Of a stretch of DNA of 64,000 nt, positions 3,067-52,614 are shown piece after piece. The number at the start of each line of letters is the position of its first letter. The first letter of the stretch is position 1. Source of the DNA: an uncultured Methanosarcinales archaeon (lineage in GTDB: Archaea > Nanobdellota > Nanobdellia > Woesearchaeales > GW2011-AR4); assembly GCA_964436645.1 (NCBI GenBank), contig CAYTDO010000003.1:939-64938 (forward strand), given 5' to 3'. Under the pieces are notes generated by a model that made no database searches, had not been told where the DNA came from, and saw only the letters and a program-made list of their open reading frames with translations. The position numbers were made by a program, and so were the translations under genes.

Positions 3067-4287
3067 ATGGAGTTTTTAGAAGAAATGAGCGAAAAAAGGC
3101 TGATTATTGCGGGGATAGATCCAGGGACAACTACGGGGTATGCTATCCTTGATCTCCAAGGAAACATTGTTTCTTTAAAATCTTCGAAAAATCTAGGATT
3201 GAATAGTTTGCTTGAGGAAGTGTTCAAGGAAGGCAAGGTCATTTGCGTTGGAACTGACAGGGCAAAGGTTCCTAATCTTATAGAACTTTTTTCTGCAAAA
3301 ACTGGAGCAAAAATACTTTTCCCGAAAGAGGACTTAAGAGTGGAAGAAAAAAGGGAGATTGTAAGGAAATTCAGTGCAAAGAACGGCCATGAAAGCGATG
3401 CGCTTGCTGCTGCTTTATTTGCTTTTGGCAGGATACGCAGCATCTTGGACAGGATAGAGAACTATGCTAGAGAAAACAATAAAATTGCAATAAAGGCAAA
3501 GATAGCTGACCTTGTTATTACGAAAGAGATTAGCATTAGGGAGGCTGCAGATATAATAGAGAATCCCGGCAAAGAAGAAAGCCAGATAATAAATAAGGTA
3601 ATTGAAAAGGATCAGCTAAGGCAAAAAGATTTCTTGAGGCTTTACCGCATAATAAAAATGCAGGAAAATGAGCTTGCTCTCTTGAAAAGGCAAAACCACA
3701 ATCTAAAGAACTACTCAAGATCTTTGGAAAGGAAGCACATCGGCGTTCAACAAAAAGAGGAATATGAGATTGATAAGAAGATACAAAAAAATCTTTCATT
3801 CAAGAACAAGAGCATCAATTTTCTGGAAGGAAGAGTATTTGAAAAAGACAAAGAGATAGGCATGCTGAAGAAGGCAGTGGCGGAATTTAACAGCCTGCTT
3901 GCCAATATACCTCAATCTACAATATTGAAAAAACTCGACAATCTTGGGAGCGCTGAATTCAGCAAAAAATTCCGTGAATTGAATATAAGCCAAGGCGATA
4001 TTTTGCTTGTCAAGAATCCTAATATAACAAGCACAGGTGTCATCCAGTTTCTCAAGGATAAAGTTGATATAATAGTTACCAAAGATGCCCCAAGCAAAAA
4101 GATAAAGGAAGATTTCAATTTTACATTTCTTGAGGCTGAAGCTCTTAACATCAAAGATCATGGAAAATTTGCATCTGCCCCTAAAATGGAGATAGCTAAA
4201 GCCCTGGAAAGCAAGACTCTCTTGAAATCAGTTATAGAAAGCTATAAGCAGAAAAAGAAAGAGGAGATTACTTCATTAAATCCCTGA
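3067..4287 (+). CDS. DUF460-family protein (predicted RNase-H-fold / Holliday-junction-resolvase-like nuclease) with a coiled-coil C-terminal half
   Basis: The N-terminus (RLIIAGIDPGTTTGYAILD...GKVICVGTDRAKVP...HESDALAAALFAFGRI) matches the archaeal DUF460 signature. The start is chosen at MEFLEEM to avoid overlap with ribK. Confidence 0.55.
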   Translation: MEFLEEMSEKRLIIAGIDPGTTTGYAILDLQGNIVSLKSSKNLGLNSLLEEVFKEGKVICVGTDRAKVPNLIELFSAKTGAKILFPKEDLRVEEKREIVRKFSAKNGHESDALAAALFAFGRIRSILDRIENYARENNKIAIKAKIADLVITKEISIREAADIIENPGKEESQIINKVIEKDQLRQKDFLRLYRIIKMQENELALLKRQNHNLKNYSRSLERKHIGVQQKEEYEIDKKIQKNLSFKNKSINFLEGRVFEKDKEIGMLKKAVAEFNSLLANIPQSTILKKLDNLGSAEFSKKFRELNISQGDILLVKNPNITSTGVIQFLKDKVDIIVTKDAPSKKIKEDFNFTFLEAEALNIKDHGKFASAPKMEIAKALESKTLLKSVIESYKQKKKEEITSLNP

Positions 4288-4702
4288 AGCTAAGGTTTAG
4301 CTTTCTTCCGGTTTTTATTTCCTTGGCCAATACTTTTTTATGCATTTGGATGATCTGAATTTTTTCGCCTTTATGTTCTATAATGTCGCCTTTCTTGAAG
4401 TATGGAAGCTTGAATAAAAGATTGACGCGATGAAGGTCCCTGCTCGTCTGCCTGCTCCTGGTGTGTATCCTGGTGCTTACAAGAATCTGGCCGCCAAAGC
4501 GATTTTGAAGCTTATTGCCAAGGCTCCTCAGTATTTTTTGCCTGGTGATATAGACATCGAACCCATCTCCAATTTCCTTCACTTTGGATATTGCCCCTGC
4601 TGGATCTTTCTCGATTTCGCTTACAACGAAGTTTACTACTTCTTCGTTTGCGTTCCTTAATTGCAAAATGCCTTCGTAATAATTGCTGTGGCGGGCTTCC
4701 AT
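4268..4702 (-). CDS. hypothetical protein, possible NMD3-like / RNA-binding OB domain
   Basis: 144-aa ORF containing GFDVYITRQKILRSLG. Only a weak resemblance to NMD3-like ribosome-biogenesis factors and no Cys cluster. Confidence 0.3.
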   Translation of the reverse strand: MEARHSNYYEGILQLRNANEEVVNFVVSEIEKDPAGAISKVKEIGDGFDVYITRQKILRSLGNKLQNRFGGQILVSTRIHTRSRQTSRDLHRVNLLFKLPYFKKGDIIEHKGEKIQIIQMHKKVLAKEIKTGRKLNLSFRDLMK

Positions 4703-4745
4703 TCTTCAGTTGAATATTATGCCCTTATTAAAGTTTGTCAAAAAC

Positions 4746-4970
4746 TAGCTTCGTGTAAAATGCAGGTTAGCAGCCTTGAGGTCGAATCTCTTTTATTATT
4801 CCAGCCAACTGACAAGGGGAGGTGCCACCTACGGGGAAAGTTAGTCTTTATGCAAAACACGAGAAAATTTCTTTGAAATTTTCTGTGTCCCGGAAATTGC
4901 AAAGCAATTTCCAAGGACATTAAAGATTCTAAGCCACTAACCCAAACGAAGTGAGTTTGTACACAACACT
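4746..4970 (+). mobile_element. decayed copy of a ~210-bp structured MITE-like element (paralog of the element at 52301-52509)
   Basis: Its first 25 nt (aaaatgcaggttagcagccttgagg) are identical to copy B. The 3' end is homologous (taaccc...gag) and internal differences are mostly transitions. Terminal inverted repeats are degenerate: agcttcgtgtaaaat at the left and tttgtacacaacact at the right. An approximate direct repeat tcaaaa(a)c flanks the element. Confidence 0.5.
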
Positions 4971-5014
4971 TCAAAAACAAAACCTTTTTATTCTGTTTGG
5001 AACTTTAAAAAAGG

Positions 5015-6350: not shown

Positions 6351-6778
6351 TTGTGTTTGTTCCCATACGCCTGAATTCTTATTTGTTCAATAATACTTTC
6401 TATTTGACCATCACCCCAAGGCTTCGGTATAATTCCATCTGGATTCAAAGCGGTTAGTCCAGAGGCAAGAGAGGAATATTGGGGGGTTCTTTCAGCAGCA
6501 GTAACCACATAAACAGGTATATTTGGATCTTGGGTTTTAACATGTCGGACTACATCTAGTCCAGATAAGCCTTCTTCCCCCGTATTCAGATCTGTTAGAA
6601 CTCCATAGAAAGGCGTGCCCGCTTTTTTTCTTTGATCGTATAATTCAATTCCTTCCCTTACACCAGAAGCAGAGGTTGGACGTGCATCTGCAATCTCGAT
6701 TAAGGCCTCTAGAGCCAATCTAATATCTGCGCGGTCATCTATTACTAAAATATCCAGCGGTTTAGGTTCATTTGCCAT
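6341..6778 (-). CDS. single-domain response regulator (CheY-like receiver)
   Basis: LVIDDRADIRLALEALI...GVLTDLNTG...PVYVVTA fits the receiver-domain acidic pocket and phospho-Asp position. The locus is GC-richer than its surroundings. Confidence 0.55.
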   Translation of the reverse strand: MANEPKPLDILVIDDRADIRLALEALIEIADARPTSASGVREGIELYDQRKKAGTPFYGVLTDLNTGEEGLSGLDVVRHVKTQDPNIPVYVVTAAERTPQYSSLASGLTALNPDGIIPKPWGDGQIESIIEQIRIQAYGNKHNQS

Positions 6779-7157: not shown

Positions 7158-8531
7158 GTGTTTGATTCGTTGGTTAGCAGATTCCCTATAATAGCAGTTT
7201 CTGGTATTTTTAGCAGCAAATATGAAGATATTGATATTTTGCCCCCTCCGCCACCCTTCCCTAAAATAAAGTCCAAGACAGAGGATGCCAAGGCGACAGA
7301 GAAAGCTGCAAAAGAAGAGCAAAGAAGGCGCAAGGAAGAAGAAAAAGCTCTCAAGCTACAGGAGAAAGATAGGCTTAGAGTAAAGGATCAGCAAAGGAAA
7401 GGGAGGAAGGAAAAGCTGTTTAATCTGCTGCATGGAGCTGGCTTAGTCAAGACTGAGGAAGAAAAGGCGCAGATTCGCAAGGAAAAGGAAAATTATAGAA
7501 ATTTTAAGCTGCAAGGAAAAAAGAAACGAGAAGAAACGTGGATAAAAGCAGAACAGGAAAGGATAGAACAAAAAGCGCTGGAAAAGCCCGGAAAAGAAAA
7601 AGCCTCAGAAAGGCTGCAAAAAGAAAAAGGAGGGCAAAAACCAGCAGATCAAATGGCCAATGAGAAAGAAAGATTAAGGCTTGAAAAGCTAGAAAAACAC
7701 GAGCAGGAGAAAAACGGGAAAAGAGAAAGGCGCGGATTGGATTTGTCTAAAATACAAACTTTAAAGATTCCAGAAAAGAAACAACTTTCCATAAAAGAGC
7801 AATTTTCCGGGCTTTTCCCAAAAATCGGCTTTGGGAGCAAGGAAGATGCTCCGGAACAGTATCCAATCATAACTAAAGAGTGGGGCATCTCTATTCCTAC
7901 TACTAGAACTAAGAAGATTAAGGGTATCCCTACACAAAATTTCCCGGAAGTGCGGGAGCTGAATTCAAAACAAAAAACAGGCTTCAAGAATTTCCCTGCA
8001 TCATCATTAAGCAAAAAGAAGGGAAAACAATTAGAGGAAGAACTTAAAGATTTAGATACGTTTAATGAAGGCAGAATCAAGACTGGAAAGAGTTTGGAGT
8101 TAAAAGATGATTGGGCAGAAAATACCAATGAGATTATTGTGGCGGAGAAAGAGATACAAGATGCTGTCGACGGCCTTAAAGCTGATGTGAAAAGGCCTTT
8201 CTTGAGCAGGATTTTCACGAAAAAGAAAAAAATCGAGACAGATGCCGGAGCTGAACCTCAAGTTGAAATGCCCCATATAATGCCAAGGACTTATGATAAA
8301 ATAGACTTTGTAGAAATGGCAGAGGCAAAGATACACAAGGCAAGGATGGCATTGATGGACTTCAATTTTGAAGATGCCAAAAGAATATATATCGAGGTGA
8401 TGGGGCTCTACAACAAAATGGAGCTTAAGGATAAGCATGATGTTTATGAAGATATAAAGGACCTGTATTATGAAAGGAAGAATGCGGAAAAGTTTGCAAA
8501 AAAAAGCAATGATATTTTAAAAAAATTCTAA
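7158..8531 (+). CDS. Lys/Glu-rich low-complexity coiled-coil protein (hypothetical)
   Basis: 457 aa. A PPPPPFP stretch is followed by about 250 aa of KEKE-type charged repeats and a more ordinary C-terminal domain. Confidence 0.45.
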   Translation: MFDSLVSRFPIIAVSGIFSSKYEDIDILPPPPPFPKIKSKTEDAKATEKAAKEEQRRRKEEEKALKLQEKDRLRVKDQQRKGRKEKLFNLLHGAGLVKTEEEKAQIRKEKENYRNFKLQGKKKREETWIKAEQERIEQKALEKPGKEKASERLQKEKGGQKPADQMANEKERLRLEKLEKHEQEKNGKRERRGLDLSKIQTLKIPEKKQLSIKEQFSGLFPKIGFGSKEDAPEQYPIITKEWGISIPTTRTKKIKGIPTQNFPEVRELNSKQKTGFKNFPASSLSKKKGKQLEEELKDLDTFNEGRIKTGKSLELKDDWAENTNEIIVAEKEIQDAVDGLKADVKRPFLSRIFTKKKKIETDAGAEPQVEMPHIMPRTYDKIDFVEMAEAKIHKARMALMDFNFEDAKRIYIEVMGLYNKMELKDKHDVYEDIKDLYYERKNAEKFAKKSNDILKKF

Positions 8532-10508: not shown

Positions 10509-11015
10509 TCAAGAATCTTGCCTGAAATTGAGCAAAGATTCTATATGATAATAGACAATCCTGCCGCTTTCCGCGCTCAGCTTCATGTTTAAGGCATTGA
10601 AAGAATGAGTTATGAGTGTAAGGTTCCAGATATCATCATAAGTATCCAGATTTTGGAGTATTGCAATTGTCTTTGATGCTGTTTCTCCGGGATATTTTTC
10701 TTTCTTGAACCTATTGGCCAGCTCCAAGATATCCTTAAATTCCAGATTTACATTCTCTAAGGATATATGCCTTACTTCTGTCTCTGGCCTTTTGAAGACC
10801 TCGTCTTCCTGCTCCATCCTGATGTTATCTCCATCTACTGTGAAAGAGACCATCTTCTCCTTTGATTTCAAGTAAAAGCCAAATTGCCACGGGTCTTCCG
10901 TTTTTTCTTCAAAAATTTTCAGGGCATATGAGAAAAAGTTTTCCGGATTTTGAGCATTCCATTCCTTGAAAGCGCCGCTTCCCTTTAATTTTTCGAATGT
11001 TTCTTTGAAGTCCAT
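10509..11015 (-). CDS. hypothetical protein (168 aa)
   Basis: Clean ORF with no recognisable motif. Confidence 0.4.
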   Translation of the reverse strand: MDFKETFEKLKGSGAFKEWNAQNPENFFSYALKIFEEKTEDPWQFGFYLKSKEKMVSFTVDGDNIRMEQEDEVFKRPETEVRHISLENVNLEFKDILELANRFKKEKYPGETASKTIAILQNLDTYDDIWNLTLITHSFNALNMKLSAESGRIVYYHIESLLNFRQDS

Positions 11016-12670: not shown

Positions 12671-12730
12671 TTTCACAAAAACTCCGAAAGCATGCCTGCC
12701 TAGATGGCTTCATCGTTTGGGCTATTATTG

Positions 12731-12853
12731 GAATTTTACGCTCGCTCAATAGCTCGCATCACGCTCGAAAATCGTAGATTTTCGGTGTCCTGGAAATCTT
12801 TGATTTCCATGATTTTTGCCATTAAATGGGCGGAGGCACATTTTTTCCGCGCT
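12731..12853. repeat. ~125-bp hairpin-rich intergenic repeat, copy 1 of 3
   Basis: Shares gctcgcatcac...cgaaaatcgtagattttcg...ggaaatctttgatttcc...gccattaaatgggcggaggc...ttccgcgct with copies at 21204-21306 and 49867-49989. Three internal stem-loops. Confidence 0.65.
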
Positions 12854-21091: not shown

Positions 21092-21203
21092 ATGGGGCCA
21101 TGGTTTGAGAGTATATAAAAAGATTTAGGTTTTAGATTGGTTTAGTATTTTTTAATTTTGTAAATGTTTCTTTTTTATTGAAAAATATGCTTTGCAAAAT
21201 ATA

Positions 21204-21306
21204 GGCTCGCATCACGCTCGAAAATCGTAGATTTTCGGTGTCCTGGAAATCTTTGATTTCCATGATTTTTGCCATTAAATGGGCGGAGGCAGCATTTTAC
21301 CGCGCT
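21204..21306. repeat. ~125-bp hairpin-rich intergenic repeat, copy 2 of 3
   Basis: Near-identical to 12752-12853 and 49888-49989. Lies in the divergent promoter region between cca and the antiporter gene. Confidence 0.65.
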
Positions 21307-34888: not shown

Positions 34889-34898
34889 TAAAAAAGGT

Positions 34899-35010
34899 GG
34901 ACAGCTTCCCTAGTTTCCCATGCATTAACACAGTACAGCTAGGAACGGAGGCTTGTTTAACTTCGGAGTTCGGAATGGGATCCGGTGGAACCATGCCCCT
35001 ATGGCCGTCC
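34899..35010 (-). rRNA. 5S ribosomal RNA
   Basis: The minus-strand sequence GGACGGCCAUAGGGGCAUGGUUCCACCGGAUCCCAUUCCGAACUCCGAAGUUAAAC...GGGAAGCUGUCC shows 5S hallmarks (CCGAAC, AGUUAA loop region, helix I pairing GGACGGC/GCUGUCC). Confidence 0.85.
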
Positions 35011-35033
35011 AGCAAATAAGGAGTAATTCTTGC

Positions 35034-49759: not shown

Positions 49760-49866
49760 TGGATTATTTTTACTTTAGTTTTTTAAAAGCTTGATTTTTA
49801 ATTATTCTCTTTATGGGTTTTAATGAGTTTATTAGTGGAAATTTAATATTGAGCCATATTATCTTC

Positions 49867-49989
49867 GAATTTTACGCTTGCACAGTGGCTCGCATCACAC
49901 GCGAAAATCGTAGATTTTCGGTGGCCTGGAAATCTTTGATTTCCATGATTTTTGCCATTAAATGGGCGGAGGCGCATTTTTTCCGCGCT
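49867..49989. repeat. ~125-bp hairpin-rich intergenic repeat, copy 3 of 3
   Basis: Same element as 12731-12853. Shares the 5' extension gaattttacgct with copy 1. The listed ORFs 49813-50022 (+) and 49843-50034 (-) are translations of this repeat. Confidence 0.65.
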
Positions 49990-51238: not shown

Positions 51239-52120
51239 TTATTTCTTAAACTCGTACATAGGCTCTGAATCAAAATTCCAGAGCTCTTTCCAGCTGGATT
51301 CTATTGATAAAAAATCTATTTCTTTGCATTTGTGAATTATCGCGCTCTTAATTTGCTCAGATATAATCAGCTTCCCGATATTTTTTATTTTAGTATTTCT
51401 GCCTGAAGCAAGCACATAGTAAGTGCCATTGTATATCACTCCAAATCCAGCTGCCTCAACATTGCTGCCAATACTAACGCTTACAAAATCCGCCATTTCT
51501 TTGATTAACGCAATATTAGCAGCTTTTTTCATACTGCTGGCAAATTGCTTATCCCTAAAATTTGACTCTTTGCCAAACATAGCTTTATTCATGGCTATAA
51601 GCCTGTCAAAAACCTGCAATTTATTTTTTTCAATTGAATAATTTAATTCTTTCAGCTTCTTAAGGTCATAGTTCAGGTTTTTCCTGTGTTTTTTGTTAAA
51701 AAATTTCAAATAATTATCAAAGCTATTACCATATTTTTGCAGATTAAGAAAATATCTTTTATCTCCAAGCTCAAAATCATAGTATTTTGCTTCCTCCGAG
51801 GATATATAATAAATCTGAGTATCTTTAGGGCAGTTCTCAAAAAAAAGCTCAGCATTTTTTTTATCTTCAATCAAAAGCTTGTTCTGCTCAGGAAAATCAT
51901 CGCCAAAATAGGTAAAACTTCCATCGGACTTAGAGGAAACTAAAGGTAAAACCCCTATGGGCTTTCCATTCTCAGCCCCTAAAATAAAATTAAGCTTAAA
52001 ATCCTTAGTATGGAAGCATGATCTGAACTCCCATAAATCCCAAAGAGTCCGATTCTCACTGTATTTTTCCCAAATAGCTTTGCACTTGCTCTCTTCGGTA
52101 ATAACTTTAAACTTGGCCAT
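51239..52120 (-). CDS. FemAB/CelD-like GNAT-fold acyltransferase (hypothetical)
   Basis: 293 aa with a layout similar to BioF2/FemAB-family N-acyltransferases. Weak assignment. Confidence 0.4.
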   Translation of the reverse strand: MAKFKVITEESKCKAIWEKYSENRTLWDLWEFRSCFHTKDFKLNFILGAENGKPIGVLPLVSSKSDGSFTYFGDDFPEQNKLLIEDKKNAELFFENCPKDTQIYYISSEEAKYYDFELGDKRYFLNLQKYGNSFDNYLKFFNKKHRKNLNYDLKKLKELNYSIEKNKLQVFDRLIAMNKAMFGKESNFRDKQFASSMKKAANIALIKEMADFVSVSIGSNVEAAGFGVIYNGTYYVLASGRNTKIKNIGKLIISEQIKSAIIHKCKEIDFLSIESSWKELWNFDSEPMYEFKK

Positions 52121-52300
52121 CTAATCTCTATCGTTTGCTCCTGACAATAGAAAAAGTGTATGTTTATAAACTCTCTCAGGCCTGAATTTCTTCTTGAAAT
52201 TGAGCAAAATTGCCTGAACCTCCAAAATCAGTGCAATCATAGCCTACTCCTGTAAGCCGATAATTCAGTTTTTAGGTATTTTAAATATTTTGCATAGATG

Positions 52301-52509
52301 GGCTTCCATGAAAATGCAGGTTAGCAGCCTTGAGGCCGAGCCCCTTGCTAAGCACATCTAAAGAGTCCGAGGGGCCGCTCCGTGAGATGCGACGAGCGGC
52401 TTTTTAGCTCGCCGCCCGCAATTCACCGGACCTGACCGATGCTTTCAGCCCAGATGCAATGGGCTCGAAGCTGCTAACCCGTAGCGTAGCGGAGATTTTC
52501 ATGGAAGCC
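52301..52509 (+). mobile_element. intact ~209-bp GC-rich structured MITE-like element: perfect 15-bp terminal inverted repeats and perfect 9-bp target-site duplication
   Basis: TIR ggcttccatgaaaat (52301-52315) and attttcatggaagcc (52495-52509). TSD gcatagatg at 52292-52300 and again at 52510-52518. The interior is about 58% GC with a nested terminal helix GGTTAGCAGC/GCTGCTAACC and further helices (CCGAGCCC/GGGCTCG, CATCT/AGATG, CCGCTC/GAGCGG). A second copy lies at about 4746-4970. Confidence 0.7.
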
Positions 52510-52614
52510 GCATAGATGAGAACAAAGCCTAGTTACGGAGATTTTAAACAAACTTTTCCACAACCTTTTTAAACCGCTATTCGTAACTTTATACTCTAAC
52601 TAAAGGTAAGTTTC

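Follow-up and report, generated by a model that had tools for sequence, protein, structure and literature searches.

Copy A, a stretch of 224-225 nt (41% GC) in the spacer between an NMD3-like gene and a signal peptidase gene, is very probably a non-autonomous DNA transposon (MITE) belonging to a family spread through the Woesearchaeota (DPANN archaea); we put the probability of this reading at about 0.8. Throughout, the window means the whole 64-kb stretch of DNA that was analysed (64,000 nt, GC about 37%), which also holds copy B, and loci from other genomes and contigs are referred to by L numbers. The elements are short (MITEs measure less than about 500 bp) and non-coding, carry terminal inverted repeats (TIRs), are flanked by duplications of fixed length whose sequence differs from copy to copy, and are missing from orthologous sites: these are defining features of a MITE. 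A sequence-only reading of the window had proposed that copy A was a diverged second copy of a MITE family, and this is borne out by the inverted repeats, the target duplication, the empty sites in relatives and the existence of intermediate copies. Much of what that reading said about how copy A diverged has to be revised.

The boundaries of the insertion are well defined (Table 1). An element with inverted repeats of about 15 bp entered the short stretch that separates the divergent NMD3-like and signal-peptidase promoters, duplicated 8-9 bp of its target (TCAAAAAC) and left both predicted promoters intact. The duplication had been described as an approximate tcaaaa(a)c; a repeat is indeed present, but it is exact at 8/8 positions (8/9 if counted at 9 bp), and the boundaries defined by homology coincide with these direct repeats. 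Judging from the standard archaeal promoter layout, CTTATTAAAG at 4724-4733 is probably the promoter of the NMD3-like gene; AAAACCTTTTTATTC at 4979-4993, conserved in four relatives, is probably that of the signal peptidase gene. Open reading frames do overlap copy A (71 aa on the plus strand, 80 aa on the minus strand), but they are not conserved in copy B, and an ATG frame common to both copies runs for 15 codons in B and 38 in A before it meets a stop.

Table 1. Positions in the window of copy A, its parts, its neighbours and copy B.
Feature	Position	Strand	Remarks
NMD3-like gene	4268-4702	-	left neighbour of copy A; start codon at 4702
TATA-like box CTTATTAAAG	4724-4733	-	14 nt from left end of copy A; position relative to NMD3-like start codon
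Left target-site duplication TCAAAAAC	4738-4745	.	exact 8-mer, repeated at 4971-4978
Copy A, degenerate mosaic MITE	4746-4970	+	covariance model positions 1-165 map to 4747-4970
Left TIR, 5' strand of P0, AGCTTCGTGTAAAAT	4747-4761	+	aligns to GGCTTCCATGAAAAT (B) and GGCTTTGTGTAAAAA (L002)
P1 5' strand GGTTAGCAGC	4765-4774	+	within the 25-mer common to A and B; pairs with 4933-4942 at 8/10 positions
P2 5' strand TCGAATCT	4782-4789	+	pairs with AGATTCTA (4924-4931) at 7/8 positions
P3 (ACTGACA/AGTTAGT), G-rich loop AGGGGAGGTG, P4 apex CCACCTACGGGG	4808-4845	+	homologous to GCCGACAAGGGGGACGTCCCTTACGGGGAATGTCGGC (L077) and the equivalent stretch of L025
Nested 63-nt two-hairpin module (hairpin, GTGTCCC, hairpin, GGACAT)	4858-4920	+	interrupts the HMM match
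P2 3' strand AGATTCTA and P1 3' strand GCCACTAACC	4924-4942	+	from the alignment and the HMM built without A
Mini-hairpin ACGAAGT in 3' linker	4946-4952	+	homologous to GCGAAGC (L019a), GCGGAGC (L025) and GCGTAGC (B, 52484-52490)
Right TIR, degenerate, GTTTGTACACAACACT	4955-4970	+	about 11-12/15-16 complementary to 4747-4761, one bulged G
Right target-site duplication TCAAAAAC	4971-4978	.	exact 8/8; abuts the element end
BRE/TATA-like AAAACCTTTTTATTC	4979-4993	+	conserved ahead of the orthologue in L007, L008, L011 and L090
Signal peptidase gene, 239 aa	5015-5734	+	right neighbour of copy A
Left target duplication of copy B, GCATAGATG	52292-52300	.	exact 9/9 repeat at 52510-52518
Copy B, intact member, 209 bp, 58% GC	52301-52509	+	perfect 15-bp inverted repeats GGCTTCCATGAAAAT
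Right target duplication of copy B, GCATAGATG	52510-52518	.	exact 9/9

The strongest evidence for insertion comes from relatives in which the same site is empty. The order of the NMD3 and signal-peptidase genes is kept in relatives, including L007 and L011, and the spacer upstream of the signal peptidase gene has a median length of about 70 nt in about 80 relatives versus about 309 nt here (the whole gap measures about 309-312 nt). Copy A is absent from this site in its two closest relatives, L011 (84% amino acid identity, the closest relative available) and L007 (68%). In L007 (GCA_053532755.1) the spacer is 185 nt long and has a single copy of the target, ...gcatTAAAAACaaaacc, in the context ...gcatTAAAAACaaaacctttttaa; in L011, AAAAAGCaaacctttttattc follows about 20 nt after the NMD3 start codon and the target is again single, ...attAAAAAGCaaacc. 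Because the site is empty in close relatives, the gene pair evidently works without the element. A third relative, L008, has a different, GC-rich member of 282 bp at the site of copy A, with its own 15-bp inverted repeats and 9-bp duplication (GCTAAAAAC).

Copy B is the sole stretch in the window related to copy A (blastn E 3e-8), and further members were found by searching 80 loci around signal peptidase orthologues (about 1.2 Mb; 1.18 Mb) with single sequences, a profile HMM and a covariance model. An HMM built without copy A detects it at 4748-4851 (E 3.8e-12 over 104 nt) and then finds its 3' part, 4927-4958, in the correct order after an interruption. The covariance model CM R1 gives copy A 98 bits and copy B 129 bits. 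As assembled from these searches, the family comprises elements of 155-282 bp in eight Woesearchaeota genomes or contigs, characterized by 15-bp TIRs (GGCTYYNNNNAAAAT; consensus GGCTYTGTNGAAAAT, inverted-repeat end GGCTYYNNNNRAAAAT), exact 9-bp target duplications in several cases and no conserved open reading frame. Nine members are full length (B, A, L004, L019a, L077, L025, L033, L017 and L083) and six are partial or more distant (L002, L019b, L035, L008a, L008b and L007x), L035 being a truncated copy that matches at its 5' end. Target duplications are exact at 9/9 positions in L025 (CTTTATTTT), L017 (GCCATTTCC), L083 (AAATTGATA), L008 (GCTAAAAAC) and B (GCATAGATG), and degraded or absent in L077, L004 and L033; the TIRs match perfectly (15/15) in B, L025 and L017. 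The 64-kb window contains two copies, and L019 and L008 contain two to three; both orientations are represented, and the contexts are unrelated (L002, for example, adjoins a leucyl aminopeptidase gene). Copies of intermediate divergence, whose absence would have counted against the sequence-only reading, are L002, L004, L019, L077, L025, L033, L017 and L083.

Two of these came from a 20-mer scan of metagenome contigs: L004 is a full-length relative of B, and L002 is truncated and intermediate between A and B. Three other hits from that scan were set aside, L005 as a doubtful match and L003 and L006 as chance matches in GC-rich coding DNA. The same scan of genome contigs gave no match, and a search of viral contigs with P1-helix patterns gave nothing beyond one chance match in a phage gene (L092). 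Some members are irregular. The TIRs of L004 (359-565) are mismatched, with a 5' end (GGCCTTGTAGAAAAT) like that of L025 and a 3' end (ATTTTCATGGAAGCC) like that of B, which suggests, from sequence, recombination between subfamilies. A distant member in L007 (9158-9353, minus strand), between the DUF460 and NMD3 genes, has differing ends (CCCCATAGAA.../...TTCTATGGGG) and a P1 that covaries (GGUAGUGCC/GGCACUACC). In L008, a truncated family copy (10725-10793) begins 5 nt past the stop codon of the peptidase gene.

Comparison within the family changes the picture of how copies A and B are related. The sequence-only reading held that copy A shared its first 25 nt with B, had drifted toward AT in its interior, and had kept the length of B under structural constraint. 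The two copies do have an identical 25-mer, AAAATGCAGGTTAGCAGCCTTGAGG (4757-4781 in A, 52311-52335 in B), although it lies 10 nt inside the element and not at its very end, and they share a 3' block, AAGC..CTAACCC. The helix partners GGTTAG...CTAACC are present as described, at 4765-4774 and 4933-4942, and so is a degenerate TIR pair, AGCTTCGTGTAAAAT and GTTTGTACACAACACT, in which about 11-12 of 15-16 positions match and one base is bulged (10 of 15 had been counted). The rest does not hold. With nhmmer, about the first 45 nt of A align to B and the interior does not; instead, positions 3-138 of copy A align to a short subfamily (L077, E 3e-4; L025, E 4e-3), a match that includes the apex GACAAGGGG...ACGGGGAA. 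The GC content of copy A is normal for that subfamily (42-46%), and its TIR core, GTGTA/TACAC, is that of L002. Judged by these sequence matches, copy A is not a version of B altered by G-to-A and C-to-T drift but a member of another subfamily, with an interior like that of L077 and L025 and a TIR core like that of L002, and many of the apparently compensatory TIR differences between A and B are transversions inherited from its subfamily. Nor are the lengths equal (224-225 versus 209 nt, in a family that ranges from 155 to 282 nt). Copy A amounts to a core of about 161 nt plus the nested 63-nt module, and B to a core whose helix P4 has been lengthened by 45 nt, which makes B GC-rich; given these different additions, the similar lengths are coincidental.

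The nested module (4858-4920) is predicted to form two stable hairpins. It is not found at this position in L077, L025 or L019a, and its similarity to L090 1752-1819 (E 1e-3) and to a module in L002 (E 0.04) is weak. Copy A would have gained it later, along with point mutations that degraded its right end and 12 of 43 base pairs. It forms 31 of the 43 model pairs, compared with 35-40 in seven other members aligned over all 43. Helix P1 has two uncompensated mismatches (TG has become CA on the 3' strand, with the 5' strand unchanged), three G-C pairs of P2 in B (CCGAGCCC/GGGCTCGA) are A-U in copy A, and the closing pair of the mini-hairpin has changed from G-C to A-U. With the worst-paired fold and a degenerate right end, copy A is probably immobile, and probably also without any function of its own.

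As a whole, the family does keep a structure. Its members share a rod-like fold consisting of P0 (the TIRs), P1 (GGUUAGCAGC/GCUGCUAACC), P2, P3 and P4, and a G-rich apical motif (AAGGGGG-N3-CCC-UUAC-GGGG) is conserved across subfamilies. A GC-NNN-GC mini-hairpin (GC-GAA-GC type) in the 3' linker, between P1 and the right TIR, is conserved as well. In the nine-member alignment, 87.4% of cells are paired versus 73.8 +/- 1.3 in shuffles (0/500 reach the observed value) and 31-45% in slid controls, and 28 of 43 pairs have changed on both sides versus 13.8 in shuffles, so that compensatory change exceeds what would be expected by chance; the counts come from a model-fitted alignment of nine sequences related to each other, which inflates pairing somewhat, and P2 of L077 and L025 is misregistered in it. 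Examples of covariation are P1 in L025 (GGCCGGCAGC/GCUGCCUGCC) and P2 in L077 (UCAAAGUCC/GGACUUUGA) and in A (UCGAAUCU/AGAUUCUA). Between A and B, 10 of the 43 model pairs differ on both sides and still pair, as had been noticed from the two copies, and 11 are broken. The idea of structural constraint thus stands for the family, where compensatory change is above both controls, but not for copy A in particular.

Because compensatory substitutions keep the rod, some hairpin-forming state, which may be RNA, single-stranded DNA or a cruciform, is under selection. The central 4-5 nt of the TIRs vary between subfamilies yet stay complementary, and P1-P4 also covary, a pattern that transposase binding alone does not explain. 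In no member does one strand fold better than its complement. Both orientations occur as well, so there is no sign of selection on one RNA strand and no evidence of a function at the RNA level.

The combination of inverted repeats, 9-bp duplications that differ in sequence and empty sites is the signature of cut-and-paste transposition by an enzyme acting in trans. A DDE transposase would have made the staggered cut; the termini (GGC), the consensus of the TIRs and a duplication of 9 bp suggest that it probably belonged to the IS903 group of the IS5 family. IS903B, a member of the IS5 family, has an 18-bp inverted repeat, GGCTTTGTTGAATAAATC, and produces 9-bp direct repeats (PMC10569121, PMC9769513). 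The family ends, GGCTTCCATGAAAAT, GGCTTTGTGTAAAAA (L002) and GGCTCTGTAGAAAAT (L025), begin with GGC and resemble the IS903B inverted repeat (PMC10569121), a resemblance that is not proof of the mobilizing enzyme, and five members have exact 9-bp duplications. Known MITEs of the IS903 group are likewise short and ORF-less, start with GGC, have ends like the IS903 inverted repeat (which agrees with the L025 TIR at 12 of the first 15 positions, and which the consensus GGCTYTGTNGAAAAT resembles) and generate 9-bp duplications; the family described here differs in its DPANN archaeal host, in TIR-centre bases that vary between subfamilies, in complementarity that runs through the whole element and in its asymmetric linkers. 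No transposase domain was found by Pfam in 30 open reading frames of the window, and a tblastn search of about 1.2 Mb of related loci, for which the query was the IS903B transposase (from L093), gave nothing significant. An autonomous partner with matching termini was likewise not found by an inverted-repeat search of the window, an ORF scan, a check of L035 or tblastn; these negatives cover the window and the fetched loci, and absence there is no proof for whole genomes.

Bacteria have comparable elements. ERIC/IRU, the Correia elements of Neisseria and RUP are non-coding intergenic repeats of 100-300 bp with TIRs and target duplications, and they form long imperfect hairpins and occur as mosaic or nested variants. 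The Woesearchaeota family is like them in size, TIRs, duplications, hairpins and mosaicism, but it is unrelated in sequence and has a multi-helix rod, a G-rich apex and the GC-NNN-GC mini-hairpin. Repeats of the REP/PATE type, which depend on IS200/IS605 or RAYT and have subterminal hairpins but neither TIRs nor duplications, were rejected as a match, given the clear TIRs and 9-bp duplications. In archaea, a published survey of computationally catalogued MITEs (cMITEs) gives a density of 105 cMITEs per Mb for one Woesearchaea genome (PMC11602168), so elements of this kind were already known to be abundant in the same phylum-level group; that catalogue does not deal with structure, target pattern or subfamily mosaicism.

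The placement of the elements also shows a pattern. Copy A lies between two divergent promoters and has a TATA-like box 14 nt away at either end. Across ten members (A, B, L004, L008, L017, L019, L025, L033, L077 and L083), 12 of 20 flanks contain an AT-only octamer at a distance of 9-17 nt from the element versus 12.5% of random non-coding positions, the 9-17 nt window having been chosen post hoc. With element ends at this distance from TATA-like octamers, many insertions lie between back-to-back promoters. The target TCAAAAAC or CTAAAAAC recurs at A, L008a, L008b, L004 and L090. The promoter-proximal pattern may reflect targeting, or it may show where insertions survive in a compact genome. 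In the 1.18 Mb searched, 7 of 12 family members directly flank the signal-peptidase gene (in L008, L017, L019, L025 and the window; the random expectation is about 11%), and their differing duplications and both orientations imply independent insertions. L090 has a composite of decayed repeat modules at the same promoter-proximal site (1690-1915), with flanks TCAAAAAC and TCCAAAAC. An orthologous insertion was considered and rejected, as its peptidase is just 48% identical at the amino acid level; the shared flanks more likely represent the same promoter-proximal target motif. It is unlikely, though conceivable, that the family is more than a passive MITE, either with a functional rod and G-rich apex or with insertion guided to the gap of about 20 bp between back-to-back archaeal promoters. 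One mechanism for such guidance could be a transposase tethered to DNA bound by TBP/TFB, and, if true, this would be the first report from DPANN archaea of a promoter-targeted "safe-haven" transposon.

Other explanations for copy A have been weighed against the transposon reading. That its similarity to B is due to chance, or that it is ordinary intergenic DNA in decay, is extremely improbable: in its favour are the AT-richness of the region, a low-complexity, A-rich flanking repeat and a direct alignment to B of just about 45 nt, but the blastn match, the match over 104 nt to an HMM that had never seen copy A, the 3' part in correct order, homology boundaries that fall on the direct repeats and the absence of the region in L007 and L011 together refute this reading. 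A and B might instead be paralogues that encode a structured non-coding RNA, such as a divergent RNase P RNA, an SRP RNA or a new DPANN RNA, with the terminal helices serving as processing stems instead of transposon ends. Both fold better than shuffled sequence (z-scores of -4.8 for B and -3.2 for A), the helices covary across genomes, B has 58% GC where the genome has 37%, many copies have a TATA-like box 13-15 nt upstream, and several adjoin the signal-peptidase gene. Against this, transcription from a box at that distance would begin within the terminal helix, each copy has a distinct 8-9-bp duplication around it, the orthologous sites in the closest relatives are empty, copies occur in both orientations and in contexts as unrelated as the leucyl aminopeptidase gene of L002, and the reverse complement folds equally well. 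Rfam offers no match, RNase P and SRP included: across the whole window at gathering scores the sole match is a 5S rRNA, and A, B, L019 and L017 match no family of Rfam 15 at E <= 1-10. The elements resemble structured RNA families in size, significant folding and covariation, and differ from them in their mobility signatures and lack of strand asymmetry. For B specifically, RNase P, SRP, retron msr-msd, H/ACA and C/D RNAs were each rejected, with no model match, transposon signatures and no adjoining reverse transcriptase gene. An RNA gene is therefore a very unlikely explanation.

A closer competitor accepts the family as real MITEs and proposes that their fold has been exapted and is under selection, copy A having been retained for that function, for example as a structured RNA in read-through transcripts or as DNA that separates or insulates back-to-back promoters. 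The compensatory change in all helices, beyond the TIRs, is in keeping with this, as are the G-rich apical motif conserved across subfamilies, the TATA-like octamers near 12 of 20 flanks and the seven of 12 members beside the same gene. But copy A is the worst-paired member and its minimum free energy structure does not form the rod; both orientations occur, neither folding energy nor G-U usage shows strand asymmetry, and the gene pair of close relatives works without the element. The positional pattern, seen through a distance window picked post hoc, could simply reflect the survival of insertions in a compact genome. Retention of copy A for an exapted function is thus unlikely, and the transposon reading is preferred.

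Several observations concern the surroundings of the two copies and the host. The host is an archaeon, as the window encodes NMD3, TFS and a CTP-dependent riboflavin kinase; homologues of the signal peptidase are annotated as Candidatus Woesearchaeota or Nanoarchaeia, with the nearest from Woesearchaeota. The 5S rRNA gene in the window stands alone (34896-35012, minus strand, 81 bits): the 64 kb contain no 16S, 23S rRNA or tRNA genes, and ARAGORN found no tRNA or tmRNA. Copy B adjoins a gene for a GNAT-type acetyltransferase (51239-52120, minus strand). In relatives L094-L097, LPG_synthase_C directly precedes the GNAT gene, and in the window it does not; this difference in context implies a local rearrangement beside copy B and makes an empty-site comparison for B uninformative.

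The window also contains a second family of intergenic repeats, about 126 nt long and 80-93% identical (12728-12853, 21181-21306 and 49864-49989, plus strand), whose core consists of two short hairpins around GGTGTCC and which matches nothing in Rfam. L002 contains a related module (1669-1743, E 6e-8). These repeats (D1) and the nested module of copy A resemble each other in architecture; a single sequence family for both was considered and rejected, the match being weak (E 0.77). L008 has two short GC-rich structured repeats (6661-6765 and 7340-7440) with compensatory differences between the copies, and these share a GTGTCCC...GGGACAT module with the 282-bp element.

Copy A and its family leave the current understanding of MITEs unchanged. 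They show that an unusually long spacer of a DPANN genome, itself very compact, is the scar of a transposon, which averts its annotation as an RNA gene, and they define, across eight genomes or contigs of Woesearchaeota, a family of MITEs by its ends, 9-bp duplication, fold and subfamily mosaicism. Elements of this family can mark strain-level variation and can break metagenome assemblies. Beyond this, compensatory evolution along the whole element and placement between divergent promoters raise the question of how mobile elements survive in minimal archaeal genomes, and which transposase is involved.
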